The notes beneath the pieces are model-generated. The model did not search any database. It saw only the letters and a program-made list of their open reading frames with translations, and was not told the origin of the DNA. Of a stretch of DNA of 64,000 nt, positions 10,145 to 23,810 are shown in pieces. Location of the stretch: NCBI GenBank assembly GCA_963674705.1, contig OY771506.1:1248001-1312000 (forward strand). The letters are read 5' to 3'. The translations under genes and the position numbers were made by a program. This stretch comes from Phycisphaeraceae bacterium (lineage in GTDB: Bacteria; Planctomycetota; Phycisphaerae; Phycisphaerales; Phycisphaeraceae). Numbering within the stretch: the stretch's first letter is position 1; every line of letters starts with the position of its first letter.

Positions 10145-11518
10145 TTACTTCGCCAGCGCGCCCATCGGGTCCCACGGCGGTAGCACGATCGGTTCCAGCT
10201 CGACCGCTTCCTTCAGTTCTTCCGGCAAATGTTCGCAGTGGATCGCCACCTCGAACATGTACTCGTCGAACCACGAGTCGTTCATGATGTAGAAACCCTT
10301 CTTGCCGTTCTCATCGCCCCAACTGTTCTCGACGCGCCAACGCCGAGGCGAATCATCGTCCTTCACATCCACGCCGGTGAACAGCATCGCGTGCGTCATC
10401 AGCGTCTGATGATAGATCAAACGCTCAGCCTTGGTGTGATTGAACGGTGTCTGGTAAACGCCTTCATAATCGAACAGCTTCGCGTCCCACAGCCCGAGGT
10501 TGCGCTGCATCATCTTCCCGACGTCGCAGCCCATCCACACCGGCTCGCCACCGATGAGCGTCTTCATCGTCAGCTTCTTCATCAGGTCCATCTCGATGTT
10601 CAGGTACTTCACCGGCTTACCGCCGATGACGTTGCCCAGATGCGCAACCGTGAACGTCTTACCCATCGGGCTCGTCGGCCGCGGGTCGTGAACAAGACAG
10701 ACATATTCATCCAGCGGCAGTGTGCAATACAAATCCGCAAACTCCAGCGGCGTCAGTTCACCATCACGATGGAAACGCTTGTCTTCATCCTGCCACTGCC
10801 AGACAAACTTCTCCGGCGGCGTGCCTAAATGAATGCACAACACGCGGTACACCGCTTCGACGATCTCAAGCTTCGCCGCCGCAACTTCATTGTCCGACTT
10901 CTTGTCCGCAATCATCTTGCGAAGTTTCGCCGCACCCTGTCGCAGCACCGTTAGAAGGATGCTGTTCATACGAGGTGTGTTACCCGAGCTTTCCGTCTCC
11001 GGCATAAACGCCTTGGGGACCAGCCCGTGCTTGCGCACGATACTCACGAACATGTTCCACTGACCGCCGTCATCCAAAGGCCGATCCAGCAGGTACGCCA
11101 CCACGCGATCGTCCGCGTCTTTGTCGGCCGTAGCAATAATCTGTTCGAGGAAGTAATTCGCCCGTTCGAGCTTGTCCCAGAACAGCGTATAGTTCTGGCT
11201 GAACTCGAAGTTCTTCAGCTTCATCTTCTTCATCGCCCCGACGCGCAGCAGGTTCAACCCCGCGAACATCCAGCAGCGCCCGGACTTCTTCTGGTTCGTC
11301 ACTTCCCAGTCGTCCAGGTGATGGCTGAACGTGTGGTCCATCGTCGTGACGACTTCGCGATTCAGCGCGACTTCATCGACCGCCGTCTGCGTGACCGCGT
11401 TCTGCATCAGCCTGTTACGCGGGTCGGCCGCAAACGAGGCACGCAATTCAGACAGAGTCTTTTCATCCAGCGCCGCCTCGGCCGCGCTCACGGAAGGATC
11501 AGATGACAGGGTAGACAC
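10145..11518 (-). CDS. pepC: Aminopeptidase C / bleomycin hydrolase (C1B cysteine peptidase)
   Basis: NQKKSGRCWMFA (catalytic Cys), MTHAM (His), WRVENSWG (Asn), C-terminal PWDPMGALAK. Confidence 0.95.
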   Translation of the reverse strand: MSTLSSDPSVSAAEAALDEKTLSELRASFAADPRNRLMQNAVTQTAVDEVALNREVVTTMDHTFSHHLDDWEVTNQKKSGRCWMFAGLNLLRVGAMKKMKLKNFEFSQNYTLFWDKLERANYFLEQIIATADKDADDRVVAYLLDRPLDDGGQWNMFVSIVRKHGLVPKAFMPETESSGNTPRMNSILLTVLRQGAAKLRKMIADKKSDNEVAAAKLEIVEAVYRVLCIHLGTPPEKFVWQWQDEDKRFHRDGELTPLEFADLYCTLPLDEYVCLVHDPRPTSPMGKTFTVAHLGNVIGGKPVKYLNIEMDLMKKLTMKTLIGGEPVWMGCDVGKMMQRNLGLWDAKLFDYEGVYQTPFNHTKAERLIYHQTLMTHAMLFTGVDVKDDDSPRRWRVENSWGDENGKKGFYIMNDSWFDEYMFEVAIHCEHLPEELKEAVELEPIVLPPWDPMGALAK

Positions 11519-11671
11519 GAGTTAACTCCCACTAATAGATAACAGTTTGGGCACAATATAGCCTGTTTATACAATAATTAATAGAGACGCCCCAGTTTCC
11601 GACCGAGCCCTTGTTTAATCCGACATTTTTCTCTTTCCCCCGCCCCCTGATCAAAATATAATCTCCTCACC

Positions 11672-12877
11672 ATGTCAAACGGGGAAACGCACACACCGAC
11701 GGACCTTCAGGCTTTGGAGCATTTTGTCGTGGAAAACGACGAGCTGCTGGAACTGGAAGAACGGATCGGGCGGTTCAACATCTTCGACGCCCTGCGGATC
11801 GTGGATGCCGAGATACGCCACTCCAACTTCCTGGCCTGGCTCCTGGACCCGAACGAATCGCACGGCCAGGGGCCGCTGTTCCTCAAAGCTATCTTGATGG
11901 ACCTGCTGCGGCAGAGCCCGCCCGACCTGCGCCCCTTGAGCCCCGTCCAGATCGACGGCGCTGAATTGCGGGGCGTAGACATCCGCCGCGAGTGGCGCAA
12001 CATCGACATCTTGATTACCTGCAAAGACCCGGCGTTTGTGATTGCGATCGAGAACAAGATCAAAGCGGGCAAGTACAACCCGTTCAAAGAATACGAAAAA
12101 CGCATTCAGGCCGAGTTCCGCGGCCAGCCCACCATGTTCGTCCTGCTGACCACAGACGGTTCGGAGCTTGAAGACTCGCAGTGGGTGCCCTACTCCTACG
12201 AAGACATCCACAGCGTTTTAACGCGCGTGCGCAAAACCCACGCCACCAGCATCGGCGACGACGTGCTCGCCTTCCTCGACCACTACATCCGCCTGATCGG
12301 GAGCCGCTTTATGGACGATCCGAAAATCGACGAACTGTGCCAGACGATTTATAAGAATCATCGGCGAGCAATCGAGATGATTGTTGAACGCACTAAAGCG
12401 GGTCGATCTGAATTGCTGTCCGCTATCGAGGACTTGATTCGTTCGGATGAGCAGCGTTGGGTATTCCTGAATTCGACGACTCGTAATATCGCGTTTCTAC
12501 CCAAGCGGTGGTATGAATGCGTGCCGCCCATTGGAGATAATCCCAGAAAAGACCCTCGGTCATGGTTGTATTGGGATTTGTGGTGCTATAACGGTTCATG
12601 TCGTTGGCGTCTGGTTTGTAACAAGGTTAACGACGAGTCGTTGCGCAAGAATATTGTGTCGGCTATCAGCGGTTCTCAAGCGGGATTTGGGTTGAAGGCG
12701 CGCAAACGAGATTTATCGCGTGGGTGGAACAGTCTTGGTTTACGTCTGATCGAAAAGTGGGCGGATGACGACCCAGAACCGCAAGTAATTATCCCAAAGA
12801 TAGAAAAGCTTATGGCCAAGTTGGAACAAGAGCTGGCGGGTATACCCGACGTTTTAAAGAAGATAAAGCTTGCATAA
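11672..12877 (+). CDS. PD-(D/E)XK nuclease family protein
   Basis: FNIF..EIRHSNFLAWLLDP..HG, then IRREW..IDIL..IAIENKI nuclease motif; variable C-terminal half. Confidence 0.85.
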   Translation: MSNGETHTPTDLQALEHFVVENDELLELEERIGRFNIFDALRIVDAEIRHSNFLAWLLDPNESHGQGPLFLKAILMDLLRQSPPDLRPLSPVQIDGAELRGVDIRREWRNIDILITCKDPAFVIAIENKIKAGKYNPFKEYEKRIQAEFRGQPTMFVLLTTDGSELEDSQWVPYSYEDIHSVLTRVRKTHATSIGDDVLAFLDHYIRLIGSRFMDDPKIDELCQTIYKNHRRAIEMIVERTKAGRSELLSAIEDLIRSDEQRWVFLNSTTRNIAFLPKRWYECVPPIGDNPRKDPRSWLYWDLWCYNGSCRWRLVCNKVNDESLRKNIVSAISGSQAGFGLKARKRDLSRGWNSLGLRLIEKWADDDPEPQVIIPKIEKLMAKLEQELAGIPDVLKKIKLA

Positions 12878-18860: not shown

Positions 18861-19066
18861 CCCAACGCCGGTCCTGAGCGCAGCGAAGGTCCGGGCGGTT
18901 TGTATAAATAACCACAGAGACACAGAGAAAATACATTTTCAAAAGAGATAAACACGGATTAACACAGATAAGAAGTGTTAGTTGTTGATTGCATCACACC
19001 AGATCCTATCCGTGTTCATCTGTGTTCATCCCTGTTCCCCGTCTTCTTCTCTGTGTCTCTGTGATT
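18861..19066. repeat. Composite repeat block: a CTGAGCG..GCGAAG copy plus nested empty inverted periodic elements
   Basis: 18861-18895 repeat; ACCACAGAGACACAGAG (18911) pairs with CTCTGTGTCTCTGTGAT (19049); the AAACACGGATTAACACAGAT arm pairs with ATCCGTGTTCATCTGTGTTCATCCCTGTT (19008-19036). Confidence 0.85.
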
Positions 19067-19076
19067 CAAACCCAAA

Positions 19077-20504
19077 CTAAACCTTCGTCTTCAACCACCC
19101 GCCATGGAAGAAACGGCCGGCAAACAATATCCCGCGCACCGCCATCTCGCCGCAGAGCCCGTACCAGATCCCGACCAGCCCAAGACCGAAGTACATCCCG
19201 AACAGGTACGCCGCCGGCAAGCGGAACACGAACAGGCTGATGTACCCGAGGATCATCGTCGACCGCGTGTCGCCTGCGCCCTTGATCGCCTGGCTGAACA
19301 CGATGTACATCGCGAAGAAAGGCTGAACCCAGCCGCAAACCCAAAGCAGTTGCGGCGTCACTTCACGATGCACCGCCACCGGCGAAACCAACGCGATCAG
19401 CTTGTCTCCCATCGTGATAAACACCACACCGCTGACCGTCATCACCGTCACCGCGATCCCGCAGCACATTAACGCCGATCGCCTCGCCATCGTCGGGTCT
19501 TCCGCGCCAAGGTACTGCCCGACCAGGATCGCCGCCGCGCCCGCCAGCGCGAAGCCCGGCAAAAAGCTCGCCGACTCGATACGCACCGCCCACATGTGCG
19601 AGCCCATCAAACCCTCGGACGATGCAAGATGGCCGATCATCAGGATCACCAGGAAGTTGCCGCCCCAGATGACGATTCCCTCTGCAAGCTGCGGTATCGC
19701 AACACGGATGATGCGCTTCGCGGTATGCCAATGCGGCTTCAGACGCGCCGGACGCAGGCGAATCAATCGCTTACCACGGAACAGAACAAACATCGTCAGC
19801 ACCGCACCGACACCCCACGCGACCGCTGTGCCCGCCGCGATCCCCGCGACGCCATGCCCGCCGATCGGTTCAGGCCCGTAAACAAACAGCAGACTCGTGC
19901 AGACGTTCACCGCGTTCACAACAACGATGACGAAGAAAGGCGTTCGCGTATCACCCGCTGCACGCAGACACGCACCGCCGACAAACAACACCGAACTCAT
20001 CGGCCCCGCCAGCGAAACGATGCGCAGATACATCGTGCCCAAATCCAGCGCCATCGCTTCCAGACCCGCCAACAACACGATCAATCTTGCCAGCGCATAG
20101 ATGATCACCGACATCCCCAGACCCATGAGGATCGCCAGTAAAATCGCCTGACCCAGTGCCGCGTTGGCTAACCGTTTGTGGCGTCCGCCGATCGCACGCG
20201 ACACCAGCGCCGACGCCCCGACGCCGACCGATCCCATCAGTAAACCCATCAGCCAGTTCACGTATCCCGCAACGCCCAACGCATCGTTCGCCGCGACCGC
20301 CAGATCCTCCGGCTTAAGCTGCGACGCCAGGTACATGTCCACCGTCCCGACCAGGAACGCCATCACCTGTTCAAGCAAAGGCCAGATCGCCAGCACCAGA
20401 ATCTGCTTGCGCAGCGACAGCCCCGCCAGCTTCCCACCCAACGCTCTGGGCACCGGCGCAGCCACCGCCACCGCTTCACTTTCAGATCCTTCATCACGGC
20501 GCAT
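19077..20504 (-). CDS. MATE family efflux transporter
   Basis: About 12 TM segments, RAAGDTRTP and KGAGDTR repeats, GVAGIAAGT. The likely start is ATG 20504, 7 nt after TACAAT; the ORF track start at 20522 is also possible. Confidence 0.92.
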   Translation of the reverse strand: MRRDEGSESEAVAVAAPVPRALGGKLAGLSLRKQILVLAIWPLLEQVMAFLVGTVDMYLASQLKPEDLAVAANDALGVAGYVNWLMGLLMGSVGVGASALVSRAIGGRHKRLANAALGQAILLAILMGLGMSVIIYALARLIVLLAGLEAMALDLGTMYLRIVSLAGPMSSVLFVGGACLRAAGDTRTPFFVIVVVNAVNVCTSLLFVYGPEPIGGHGVAGIAAGTAVAWGVGAVLTMFVLFRGKRLIRLRPARLKPHWHTAKRIIRVAIPQLAEGIVIWGGNFLVILMIGHLASSEGLMGSHMWAVRIESASFLPGFALAGAAAILVGQYLGAEDPTMARRSALMCCGIAVTVMTVSGVVFITMGDKLIALVSPVAVHREVTPQLLWVCGWVQPFFAMYIVFSQAIKGAGDTRSTMILGYISLFVFRLPAAYLFGMYFGLGLVGIWYGLCGEMAVRGILFAGRFFHGGWLKTKV

Positions 20505-20575
20505 GGCGGGCATTGTAGCCATGTAGAAAAATCACGCGCGTGAGCTTTCGATAAACAAACCACGCACACAAGACA

Positions 20576-21406
20576 CGCGCACGCTGGCAGCGTGCGGCTA
20601 TAAGCTCTTAGTAAACAGTACGCGTTCAGAAGCAACCAGCCGCGAGCAGCCCTGCTCGCGCGCTGAACGCCCAACAATCATTACCCGTCCCGAAGCAACC
20701 AGCCGCAGGCAGCCCCGCCTGCGCGCCAACCCTTCAGCAATCATTGCCCTTCCCTTCAAACCAACACACCCCCCGATGGTCGGGCAGATACACCCCCAGC
20801 AGATAATCAAAGTGCTCCTGATCCGCGACATGTTTCTGACTGCCACCACGGCCGAACCAGTGTGCTTTACGTGAATGTTCATTTAACCTGCGCGTCAGCG
20901 ATTGCTTCAGGTTCTGCCGAACATCTTTCGCGTCTTTTTCAGTCGACAAACTCACAAGTATGTGAACATGCGATGCATCGGTTGCAATCCCGTGCAGCCG
21001 CAATGATTGGTTCTCGCATGCTTCTTTAGTAATGGCGATCAGTTGTGTTTGAATCTGCGCATCAAACTTAACAACCACCTGCTGTTGTCTTTCACGATAA
21101 CGATCCGCCATCTTGATGCTTTGTGGTTGAATCCCTTTGCCCCGCTGAACGTATCCGCGCTTGCGATCGGGCATCCACGAACCATAAGCATGAAACGTGA
21201 AGAGATAAACCGGCATATGGGGATTGTACAAAGAACGCTGCGTAGAAGGTATTTGTAATAGAAAATCCGCGCACGCTGGCAGCGTGCGGCTATTGGCTAT
21301 TGGTAATCAAAGTGTGTTCAGAAGCAACCAGCCGCAGGCAGCCCTGCCTGCGCGCCGACCGACCAGTAACCATTACCCGTCATGAACAACCAGCCGCGGG
21401 CAGCCC
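20576..21406. repeat. Six REPs of RAYT-2: 20576-20599, 20638-20662, 20701-20725, 21268-21291, 21330-21354, and partial 21392-21406
   Basis: AGCCGC-[hairpin]-GCGCG, e.g. AGCCGCAGGCAGCCCTGCCTGCGCG; reverse copies read CGCGCACGCTGGCAGCGTGCGGCT. Confidence 0.9.
20734..21216 (-). mobile_element. HUH/Y1 tyrosine transposase, REP-associated (RAYT-like) no. 2
   Basis: MPVYLFTFHAYGSWMPD, HUH motif HVH, WFGRGGS, candidate catalytic Tyr in YLPDH; REP arrays on both sides. Confidence 0.85.
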
Positions 21407-21591
21407 GGCCAGCTTCCCGCCCAACGCTTTGGGCACGGGCGCAGCCACCGCCACCGCTTCACTTTCCGATCCTTCTTCACGGCGCATGGCGGGCATTGTA
21501 GCCATGTAGAAAAAGCACGCGCATCTGTGAGGATTGGGTAAGTAAACCACCCACTATCGGACACCGGCTATTAATGCCCGCCCTTCTGCTG

Positions 21592-21619
21592 TAAACGTTC
21601 GCGGAAAACAGGTCGATAT
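21592..21619 (+). promoter_or_regulatory. Putative sigma-28 promoter
   Basis: TAAA-N16-GTCGATAT, about 50 bp upstream of ATG 21669. Confidence 0.55.
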
Positions 21620-21668
21620 CAGTCAGACGGTTCTGTTCAAACATATTAACTCTGACCAGGGGAATTCG

Positions 21669-22613
21669 ATGAGCATTTTAAAAGCGCGAACCATTCTTGC
21701 GGCCGCCATCTTTGTCATGTCCGCCGCAACTGTTCTTGCTTCCGACAACGCATCCGAGCCGGTCAATCTCGTCGGCAAACGAACTTTTACGCAGGGCGAG
21801 CTGTTCAAGATCAACGGCTCGAGAACGATTAAGAAACACATCGTCGTCACTTCGTTCGGCCGAAAGGTCGACGACAAGGTCTTGAAGATGACCTTGGAAG
21901 CCGAACTCGAAGTCTATATCGCAAAAGTCGACGAGGAAGGCGCGGTTCGGCAAGCGAAGTTTCGTATTGTGTCATGCGATGTCAAAGACGAGTACGGTCT
22001 AATGACGGCTCTGCCGCAAGGCACCGTGCTCACCGTTTCGTTGAATGACATCGGTGAATCAACCATCACAAAAGATGGCGAGTTGCTTGATGATTCGGCA
22101 GCTCAATGGGTCGATGGTTTTACCCTGTTGCTGGATAATGACCACGGTGAATACTTGAACCCTGGCCACGAAGTCAGTCCGGGTGAGTCTTGGCCGGTAG
22201 ATGCAAAACAGATCGCCGCGAAACAAAACGCATCTGAATCCAGTTTCGTGATTCATGAAAAACAGATTAAGGGTAACGTCGTGTTTGATGGCGTTCGCAA
22301 GTACCCCAACTCGCCATTGTACGAGATATCCTACCACATGGACTTGGGCGAAATCCCCTTCCCCGACTCGGCTGTGTTTGGTGGGCTGAAGGTTCAAACC
22401 AACTCTCTGAAAGTCGACAGCAAAATGTTTATACCCGCTGATAATCATTCGCCAATCGTTGGACACAAGGAATCGGCCATCAACTATCACCGGCTGGTTG
22501 ATAAGCAAGACCCCAATCGTATGGTGATTCAACAGACCTTGATACTCTCACAGCAGTATCAGCGGATGCCCGTGAACACACAGCTTGGCGCTGTTGATGA
22601 ATCACACCATTAA
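21669..22613 (+). CDS. Exported hypothetical protein
   Basis: Signal peptide (TVLA-S); beta-rich mature region with a VSPGESW motif. Confidence 0.75.
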   Translation: MSILKARTILAAAIFVMSAATVLASDNASEPVNLVGKRTFTQGELFKINGSRTIKKHIVVTSFGRKVDDKVLKMTLEAELEVYIAKVDEEGAVRQAKFRIVSCDVKDEYGLMTALPQGTVLTVSLNDIGESTITKDGELLDDSAAQWVDGFTLLLDNDHGEYLNPGHEVSPGESWPVDAKQIAAKQNASESSFVIHEKQIKGNVVFDGVRKYPNSPLYEISYHMDLGEIPFPDSAVFGGLKVQTNSLKVDSKMFIPADNHSPIVGHKESAINYHRLVDKQDPNRMVIQQTLILSQQYQRMPVNTQLGAVDESHH

Positions 22614-22687
22614 ACGCATGTCATCAGGCAACAGTAGCGGGGTGCTCTATCGGCTCGTTAAGTAATCGCCCGTCAGGAAGTGTTGTG

Positions 22688-23677
22688 TTAAGCCATGGGC
22701 GGTGTTGCGCGCGACACGGTCCTGGCCACCACAGGCGGATCGATCGCCGTGGTTTCGCTTGCTTTCGGCTTCGGCGCTTTCGTGCCGACCGCCTTGGGCA
22801 TCTGATCTTCGCGCGGCATCACGATCTGTTTGGCCAGGCCCACCAGCGACAGCGCGCGGATCGTCCAGTACGTCAGGTCGAACTCATACCAGCGCAGCCC
22901 GTGTGCGGCGGAGCGAGGCAACGCGTGATGGTTGTTATGCCAGCCTTCGCCGAAGCTAAGCAGTGCAACCCACCAGAGGTTGGTCGACTTTTCGCCGGTT
23001 TCTTCGTAGTTCTGATAGCCCCACGTGTGTGCGGCGGAGTTCACGAACCACGTGATGTGGAACACCGCAACGGTGCGGAACGCAATCGCCCAGACGATCC
23101 ACGATAAACCCAGTTGCCAACCACCGATTGCAAAACCGATCGCAAACAGCAATACGGTCAACACCAACTGCGGCACGAAGAAGTAGCGGTTAAGAACGCG
23201 CTGACCTTTATCACGCAGCAGGTCTTTTGCAGCATCTTCACCGCAGATGCCTTCGAGTTTGTCGTGCAATGTCCAAAGAATGTGTGCCCACGTGAAGCCG
23301 TGCTCCGGGCTGTGCGGATCGTGATCGGTGTCAGAGTGTTTGTGATGTAAACGATGCACGCCCACCCACGTGACCGGGCCGCCTTGCCAGGCAAGACAAC
23401 CGCAAACAGTCAAGACGTACTCGAACCACTTGGGCGTCTTGAACGAACGATGTGTTAACAGGCGGTGGTAACAGAGCGTGATACCGATGCCGCCGGTGAT
23501 CCAACCGAGCAGTAGCGCCAGGATCAATCCCGACCAACTGAACAGGCTCGGAACGAACACAAACAACGCGATCAGATGCATCATGCCGATGCCGAGGATC
23601 ACCGTCCAATTCAGGTTCGCCCATTCAATCCCGCCACGACGTGGCGCGGCAGGTACATCACTATTTTGTTTGGGCAT
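22688..23677 (-). CDS. Delta-9 acyl-lipid/acyl-CoA fatty acid desaturase
   Basis: His boxes HRLLTH, HRLHH and HNNHH; GEGWHNNHH. Start at MPKQNSD. Confidence 0.95.
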   Translation of the reverse strand: MPKQNSDVPAAPRRGGIEWANLNWTVILGIGMMHLIALFVFVPSLFSWSGLILALLLGWITGGIGITLCYHRLLTHRSFKTPKWFEYVLTVCGCLAWQGGPVTWVGVHRLHHKHSDTDHDPHSPEHGFTWAHILWTLHDKLEGICGEDAAKDLLRDKGQRVLNRYFFVPQLVLTVLLFAIGFAIGGWQLGLSWIVWAIAFRTVAVFHITWFVNSAAHTWGYQNYEETGEKSTNLWWVALLSFGEGWHNNHHALPRSAAHGLRWYEFDLTYWTIRALSLVGLAKQIVMPREDQMPKAVGTKAPKPKASETTAIDPPVVARTVSRATPPMA

Positions 23678-23810
23678 TCGGTTACTCTCGTCGTGGAATG
23701 GGTAGTCAATAGAGGTGGCACATGGTAGGTGCATCGGTCCGGCAATGCCAACGCCATGAACAAACATTTGCCCCTTGCGAGCTAAACCGCATGTGAGCCC
23801 GTGTCAATTG

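Follow-up and report, generated by a model that had tools for sequence, protein, structure and literature searches.

A putative REPtron-like system within a two-allele recombination scar of a Phycisphaeraceae genome

Between the genes of a MATE efflux transporter and a fatty acid desaturase, the genome of a Phycisphaeraceae bacterium (GCA_963674705.1) carries a small Y1 HUH transposase gene set among repetitive extragenic palindromic (REP) hairpins and, beyond it, a second, truncated copy of the MATE 5' end. The locus lies in a window of 64,000 nucleotides (contig OY771506.1, positions 1,248,001 to 1,312,000 of the forward strand). Plain coordinates are window positions; G000 is the window's own genome, G004 its sister species, and positions prefixed G000:C1 or G004:C1 are genome positions. 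Here we describe this arrangement, which from its sequence is a chimera of two long-separated alleles of the desaturase-MATE gap, joined at a 6-bp microhomology in a REP loop. The features are as follows.

19077..20522, minus strand: MATE efflux transporter gene, intact, 481 aa (PF01554; TIGR00797 above cut-off)
20418..20539: copy 1 of the MATE 5' end, codons 1-35 and 17 upstream bases, within the working gene
20540..20575: diverged homologue of the MATE upstream region, aligning with 21523-21564 and stopping at REP-A
20576..20601, minus strand: REP-A hairpin, ATAG foot
20636..20662, plus strand: REP-B hairpin, CCAG foot, 63-bp unit
20699..20725, plus strand: second REP-B hairpin
20734..21216, minus strand: Y1 HUH transposase, 160 aa from ATG; the open reading frame (ORF) extends to a TTG at 21231
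21268..21293, minus strand: REP-A hairpin of the right block
21328..21354, plus strand: REP-B hairpin of the right block
21390..21406, plus strand: half REP-B consisting of the foot, the left arm and the loop, with the microhomology to MATE codons 34-35 in its final 6 bases (21401-21406)
21401..21522: copy 2, the truncated MATE 5' end, with a predicted 41-aa peptide running into the half REP
21523..21564: region upstream of MATE in its transposase-free form, shared with G004
21565..21604: in the transposase-free allele, a probable remnant of REP-A that has the foot and spacer but no hairpin core
21669..22613, plus strand: Y314, a 314-aa gene
22688..23767, minus strand: fatty acid desaturase gene

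An earlier, sequence-only reading had given the order as MATE 5' end, three REPs, transposase, two REPs and a half REP, and a second MATE 5' end, and both coordinates and folding bear this out. The five full REPs fold as hairpins (z -2.4 to -3.6 against shuffles) and the half REP does not (z -0.7). The right REP block is 82% identical to the left one over 147 bp. The REP-A family has 46 genome-wide matches in G000 at up to 2 mismatches, and the reversed-pattern control has none. In a contig of run X4 one 63-bp REP-B unit is missing (window 20619-20681), so the number of units differs among strains. A search for a sigma-70-like promoter in 20400-21700 found none.

The two copies of the MATE 5' end (20418-20539 and 21401-21522) lie 983 bp apart and are 94% identical, with 7 differences in 122 sites. 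Four are synonymous (20424, 20436, 20454 and 20484), one is R/K (20446), one D/E (20493) and one non-coding (20532), the same tally as had been claimed. The fusion of copy 2 to the half REP through CAGCCC at the REP loop was likewise found as described. Because an intact REP with the identical left arm exists at G000 position 4270706, the joint is readable either as 6 exact bases or as 9 of 10 with one mismatch. Site 21407 lies within this joint, where REP and MATE agree at 9/10 bases, and its base is that of neither intact REP-B nor copy 1. All seven differences are present, but only 6 in 112 bp are therefore safely allelic.

Homology between the copies continues for about 36 bp beyond the 122 bp, up to the REP-A edge, with 10 mismatches in 37 aligned bases plus gaps, a score that 0 of 1000 shuffles reach. 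The promoter thus differs by 27% (10/37) and the coding part by 5% (6/112), a pattern hard to obtain by duplication in place. The copies are best read as separate working alleles brought together, and on this the sequence-only reading is supported. The divergence of promoter against coding part is the stronger argument, since the synonymous excess is weak alone (4/6, P = 0.047; 3/5, P = 0.12 without the joint site). That weakness is what speaks for an old local duplication within one genome, with the spare copy drifting later. A dead copy should, however, match the promoter in divergence, and 5% against 27% plus indels would require gene conversion confined to the coding part; such an origin is very improbable.

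The layout could also be an artefact of assembly, produced from two merged haplotypes or from an empty chromosome and a free 983-bp circle. The first had been named earlier as the outcome that would undo the interpretation, and spanning reads had been proposed as the check. The half-REP joint lies inside error-free contigs: an X1 contig of 1005 bp spans 20502-21506 with zero differences and an X2 contig spans 21268-21506. X1 and X2 are one sample, possibly the source of the assembly; an X3 contig (21390-21514) reaches only 11 letters left of the joint and was excluded from the bridging count. Depth in X1 is 8.9 on the left, 8.7 in the insert and 8.8 on the right; over the 38 bp that the two copies share it rises to 18. 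No joint skipping the insert occurs among the contigs of X1-X4, and the genome is one contig with no N. The point in favour of an artefact is that contigs break at the 38-bp identical core, so that no single record covers the whole layout; spanning is obtained for the joint but not for the entire arrangement. Equal depth, the doubled core and the error-free joint contigs make an artefact of either kind highly improbable.

The enzyme scores above the Pfam Y1_Tnp cut-off (PF01797, 33 bits against 23) and below the NCBIfam cut-offs for REP-associated tyrosine transposases (RAYTs; NF047646, 18.9 against 80) and for IS200 (NF033573, 28 bits against 55). Numbered from the TTG, H88 and H90 (H88-x-H90) and Y148 are invariant in 33/33 aligned proteins. 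The predicted structure has a confidence (pLDDT) of 95 and places Y148 within helix 138-151. TnpA structures top the Foldseek list, with ISDra2, IS608 and 4ER8 of similar strength; a sequence search of the solved structures gave E values of 0.13 or worse. Sequence and structural model together place the predicted protein in the Y1 HUH transposase superfamily (TnpA-Y1).

Within that superfamily it is a member of a family of Planctomycetota whose Y motif is YL[P/S]xH and whose hairpins have ATAG feet, set apart from the published subclasses as these are described. The motif occurs in 54 of 62 distinct full-length matches and reads YLPDH here, and YxxxNP occurs in none of the 33 aligned family proteins. 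An ATAG foot is seen at 38/46 family loci and GTAG at 7/46. Among the 29 family loci with 2-kb flanks, to which the hairpin test was limited, an NTAG-footed hairpin lies within 250 bp of the gene at 26, against 1/29 in control windows 1.75-2 kb away. Relatives are found in 46/301 genomes of the order, and the named matches are nearly all from Planctomycetota, including Phycisphaeraceae. A search of 72,556 plasmid records at E 1e-10 gave no match. G000 has no near-identical second copy of the gene, its closest paralogues being 54% and 47% identical. The former, a second family transposase at G000:C1:2626525-2626995, faces other sequence at the syntenic G004 site.

The earlier label of 'RAYT-2' did not hold. 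The motifs are SHVH, WF and YLPDH instead of DHLH, WE and YIHYNP, the NF047646 score is far below its cut-off, and the REPs are short hairpins with ATAG or CCAG feet rather than the long GT[AG]G-footed REPs of that type, some of which are bulged. The Y motifs in Table 1 of PMC6006769 are YxxxQ, YxxxNP and YxxxxQ; YL[P/S]xH is none of these, so by that table the enzyme is neither a Group 2 RAYT nor class 3. Class 2 TnpA-REP was rejected in every subclass, as the Y-x-x-x-N-P signature is missing. Class 3 TnpA-Y1 (Quentin et al. 2018, PMC6006769) is similar in being planctomycete-rich and REPtron-like, with atypical hairpins and a fold near IS200 TnpA; compared by its published description, it has a YxxxxQ motif and a CnGA foot, and the present family has neither. 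The IS200/IS605 TnpAs (IS608, ISDra2) are the top Foldseek matches (E about 1e-5, TM about 0.5) and share the Y1_Tnp score above cut-off. An insertion sequence of that kind was nevertheless rejected: the gene has no YxxxQ, no multiple near-identical copies and no adjoining tnpB, and is single copy amid a dispersed REP family. No description of a YL[P/S]xH transposase family was found in the literature examined, supplementary data apart.

By analogy, the system would work like a REPtron, with footed, genome-wide hairpins around a gene that is low in copy and absent from the plasmids searched. In common with the REPtrons or RAYT-REPIN systems (REPINs being REP doublets) as described for E. coli TnpA-REP (PDB 4ER8), subclasses 2.2 and 2.5 of PMC6006769 and Groups 2 and 3 of PMC5581495, it has a single Y1 HUH gene between inverted hairpin doublets. 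Dispersed cognate hairpins, no near-identical second copy, no plasmid match and synteny among congeners are further likenesses. It differs in its motif (YL[P/S]xH, not YxxxNP) and in its foot, which is mostly ATAG (CCAG in REP-B) where the known one is GT[AG]G. Moreover, 3/4 of the family loci of G000 and G004 are in only one of the two.

In five congeners the desaturase directly adjoins MATE. G004, about 95% identical over 49.8 kb aligned, has a transposase-free Y314-MATE allele with a single MATE start, as do contigs of X7 and X9, which join 20541 to 21523; transposase-free relatives, with which the locus was to be compared, thus exist. In a distant congener, G009, this interval contains a transposase of 62% identity that points the same way, between flanking proteins that are 54-80% identical. 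One extra gene, which looks TrpF-like, stands there between transposase and MATE. G004 has no close relative of the enzyme, its best family matches (49% and 47%) being associated with other hairpin types.

The REP population is older than the split of the two species. REP-A has 38 matches in G004 against 46 in G000, of which 23/38 and 20/46 are without mismatch, and for 30 of the 31 G004 REP copies examined a G000 REP stands at the orthologous flank. In the transposase-free allele a REP-A foot and spacer-like stretch, without the hairpin core, directly follows the end of the promoter homology. The score of this putative relic is equalled by 6/5000 random genome segments; it was noticed post hoc, and in G004 the resemblance is weaker. 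Site and REP population thus predate the split from G004, contrary to the earlier suggestion that the transposase is new to the lineage, and ancestors likely used the site already. The relative in G009, the shared REP sites and the relic support a chimera of two old alleles. Both are present here, with diverged promoters: R (REPs-transposase-REPs-MATE), which we infer to be ancestral at this site, and Y (Y314-MATE), the derived one. REP decay was rejected as a clock of enzyme loss, since both genomes have private and decayed copies and decay therefore gives no direction. REP clusters at G000:C1:2241190-2241335, 2365242-2365320 and 488909-488933 differ from their G004 counterparts, either by a clean loss or gain or because they have collapsed through hairpin loops.

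The same kind of scar occurs elsewhere in G000. The 3' end of hisF is duplicated over 225 bp with 6 synonymous changes and one A/V (G000:C1:260781-263954), around an insert that holds GH17-like and sugar-binding protein genes. The 3' end of a DUF1015 gene is duplicated over 81 bp with 3 synonymous changes (G000:C1:859111-859559). Both inserts are absent in G004, and neither holds a REP-A match or a match to this transposase. Of 5 candidate scars checked in G004, 3 are single-copy there and the other 2 have no clean empty site. The automated genome-wide scan missed hisF and also lists tandem paralogues, so no rate is claimed. At the family loci a duplicated host-gene end was found in 1/36, this locus only, and in 0/46 of a second, overlapping set; several of the 36 have a short flank, and the 46 come from the 62 distinct full-length matches, those with less than 400 bp on a side being dropped. 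Such a duplication was accordingly rejected as a family signature. By its sequence the scar is a footprint that recombination leaves generally in this genome, not one specific to the transposase, and the idea that it reports RAYT chemistry is not supported.

Our preferred reading, to which we assign a probability of roughly 0.4, is that host recombination, and not a jump of the transposase, brought the 983-bp cassette back from a close relative. R would be the older allele, and Y would have arisen from it through loss of the cassette. A Y chromosome that retained about 40 REPs would then have taken up R DNA. One end would recombine homologously with MATE, whether as a linear anchor or through a single crossover of a circularised fragment. 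The other would anneal where the REP loop matches MATE codons 34-35, so that the resident 5' end was left stranded as copy 2. A breakage-prone end would come from the hairpin, with no need for transposase chemistry. One homologous crossover and one 6-bp microhomology join likely formed the chimera, and this fits the earlier proposal of homology at one end and microhomology at the other.

Joins of this kind have been described as homology-facilitated illegitimate recombination (HFIR), in which the microhomology is 3-10 bp, a range that includes the present joint under either of its alignments, and in which insertion coupled to deletion is the usual product; a circle with a single crossover gives duplications of 109-950 bp (PMC3240628, in the passages on these products). 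Homology at one end, a short microhomology at the other and duplications of the size given by the circle route are common to both cases. The present one differs as a natural two-allele scar read from sequence, with its joint in a REP loop and a RAYT-like gene as cargo. Y314 differs from its G004 counterpart at 0.156 of fourfold sites, within the range of neighbouring ORFs (median 0.098, range 0-0.27, 38 ORFs), which agrees with vertical descent. The inner piece at the other scars appears to be the incoming one, favouring re-entry. In low-depth contigs of X4 and X5 the transposase differs at 1-3 positions per 138-168 bases; a donor-like population thus exists, which is counted for re-entry. As an HFIR product the joint would have formed RecA-dependently during DNA uptake, and the ComEC and DprA families are present in the genome above cut-off.

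Several observations weigh against re-entry. Competence genes are widespread (10/14 control genomes), with no demonstration of natural transformation. The transposases of G009 and G000 form no supported pair in the tree. Of the differing sites, G004 agrees with copy 1 at 4 and with copy 2 at the other 3, with no private change in the 122 bp, so that the comparison of the copies with the transposase-free allele, proposed earlier, has been made and gives no direction. No transposase-free strain of G000's own species was found. MATE differs from G004 at 8 positions in its 3' part and 31 in its 5' part; 52/394 windows of 800 bp have 8 or fewer, and this step was discarded as a crossover marker. 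The X4 and X5 contigs are near G000 on both flanks (MATE 0/183 and 4/213, desaturase 3/373 differences). They depart from the window sequence at 21347 (47 letters unaligned) and 22728 (68 unaligned), the edges of the Y segment.

This last pattern fits a mirror-image event, in which the transposase never left and a 1.3-kb piece (desaturase end, Y314 and MATE 5' end) came in. Homology in the desaturase would have anchored the piece at one end and the REP loop would have been the joint at the other, with half a REP and what lay beyond it deleted, a textbook HFIR geometry. An R allele that looks ancestral, from the G009 site, the shared REPs and the relic, agrees with this, as do the transposase-bearing, G000-like X4 and X5 contigs, the insertion-plus-deletion with microhomology that PMC3240628 gives as the usual product, and the clear presence of Y314 in only 2 of the 41 genomes searched, G000 and G004. 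Y314 is, however, no closer to G004, X7 or X9 than background, so that an unsampled third donor would be needed. A donor with MATE homology at its far end should mostly recombine there, and the X4 and X5 contigs are short, unlinked, of depth 2-4 and from one study. We regard the mirror-image event as possible, though unlikely. The zero cover of X4 and X5 over 21413-22725 was left unused as evidence of a missing Y314, the depth being only 2-4. The exact 26-base MATE-start pattern had 0 matches in metagenome contigs, and no literature on phage-type gene-end replacement was found.

The alleles could instead have met long ago. The chimera would then date to the split of G000 and G004, and G004, X7 and X9 would have lost the cassette by crossover between the copies, which would make their 'empty' site derived. 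The lack of a private G004 change in the 122 bp is as expected from this, and 5/7 sites agree with a sequence that is copy 1 to the left and copy 2 to the right. The intact look of the G004 REPs, more often free of mismatches than those of G000, points the same way, and the changes in copy 2 are compatible with neutrality (2 of 3 synonymous, P = 0.18). Two sites nevertheless misfit a single crossover, the X4 and X5 contigs suggest an unjoined R allele near G000, and a 122-bp direct repeat would have to persist for long. We hold this course of events to be improbable.

A role of the transposase in the joining was also considered, in which it cut the REP and drove the join, either through a nick priming copying or through an excised, single-stranded circle of 983 nt. 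The microhomology ends between C and T of intact REP-B, and copy 2 reads C followed by G there. TnpA-Mb cleaves between C and T via A3G4 and between C and A via T2G4, and is retargetable by a change of foot (PMC8266576, sections 11 and 21). By analogy with that source, a CCAG foot such as that of REP-B would yield exactly these two cuts under the two TnpA-Mb pairing schemes. The argument is, however, extrapolated from a distant enzyme, and for strand transfer a 3' C is enough, without 6-10 bp of homology. Host-end duplications at the family loci are as rare as given above, and the hisF and DUF1015 scars occur without the enzyme. REP clusters elsewhere also differ between G000 and G004 by hairpin-loop collapses, and the passages of bioRxiv 2024.07.17.603846 report no RAYT circles seen in E. 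coli. We find a transposase-driven join improbable, about as much so as the old chimera.

A broader proposal is that the family travels as a REPIN-bounded cassette. It would cut the REP loop (between C and T) and the host site (between C and G) under a CCAG guide, leave as a single-stranded circle with a piece of the neighbouring gene, and home back into relatives that have lost it but keep the REPs, the same doublets being landing sites for unrelated single genes. This, too, seems improbable to us; if it were true, the locus would show, in nature and at base resolution, how a regained RAYT rescued a REP population.

Genes bounded by REPs do recur, and family genes often stand between direct copies of a REP doublet. 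In G004 a family transposase lies between direct doublets (G004:C1:931897-932379) where G000 has a single, partly decayed doublet (G000:C1:3774319-3774420), and its sister protein occupies a non-syntenic site in G009. A DUF5063 gene stands between two direct REP-A doublets at G004:C1:4073248-4074030, where G000:C1:1244561-1244633 has one doublet and no gene; this looks like a REPIN-bounded gene cassette. For both arrangements loss via repeat recombination explains the difference as well as gain does. Different genes also occupy one site between REP-A copies, an HSDR_N-domain gene in G004 (G004:C1:4257753-4259053) and other ORFs in G000 (G000:C1:1425501-1426800).

The inheritance of RAYTs is described as vertical, without evidence that they transpose themselves, and a regained RAYT that rescues a REPIN population figures only as a theoretical possibility (both in passages of bioRxiv 2021.07.10.451892). 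Rare RAYT transfer between Pseudomonas relatives has been proposed from trees and new loci (PMC3686654, PMC3390384, PMC5581495). Lateral gain between relatives is proposed there as here; the present locus adds an ancestral site and a base-level joint, and the Pseudomonas passages give no junction sequence. It is a candidate natural case of RAYT regain with a base-level joint, by the ordinary route of allele exchange between close relatives. It also defines a testable pair of enzyme and DNA, a YL[P/S]xH transposase with ATAG and CCAG feet, outside the published subclasses as described. What is new is thus a putative REPtron-like system outside those subclasses, caught in a two-allele recombination scar. 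We rate its value as moderate, since recombination leaves such scars generally in this genome and the readings differ on which way the DNA moved.

Y314 matches no Pfam or NCBIfam family, and an assignment to DUF6263 (Atlas) was rejected, as only 14% of members carry that name among otherwise unnamed clusters and recognition is below the reliable range. Another, far more abundant repeat lies directly downstream of MATE (window 19007-19042). At G000:C1:291432-293877 a Y1-type gene with short inverted-repeat-like ends has its 5' end duplicated around a 1.56-kb insert of 41% GC that contains a WG-repeat gene, and is single copy in G004; by motifs alone it resembles subclass 2.1 or TIRYT. An ORF with an HxH motif between direct hairpin-doublet copies (G000:C1:1025175-1025516) is probably another Y1 HUH gene. 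Finally, about 2.7 kb of the window (10145-12877) is nearly identical to G004, with 1 difference over two genes against about 95% identity overall, which suggests a recent exchange between the two species.

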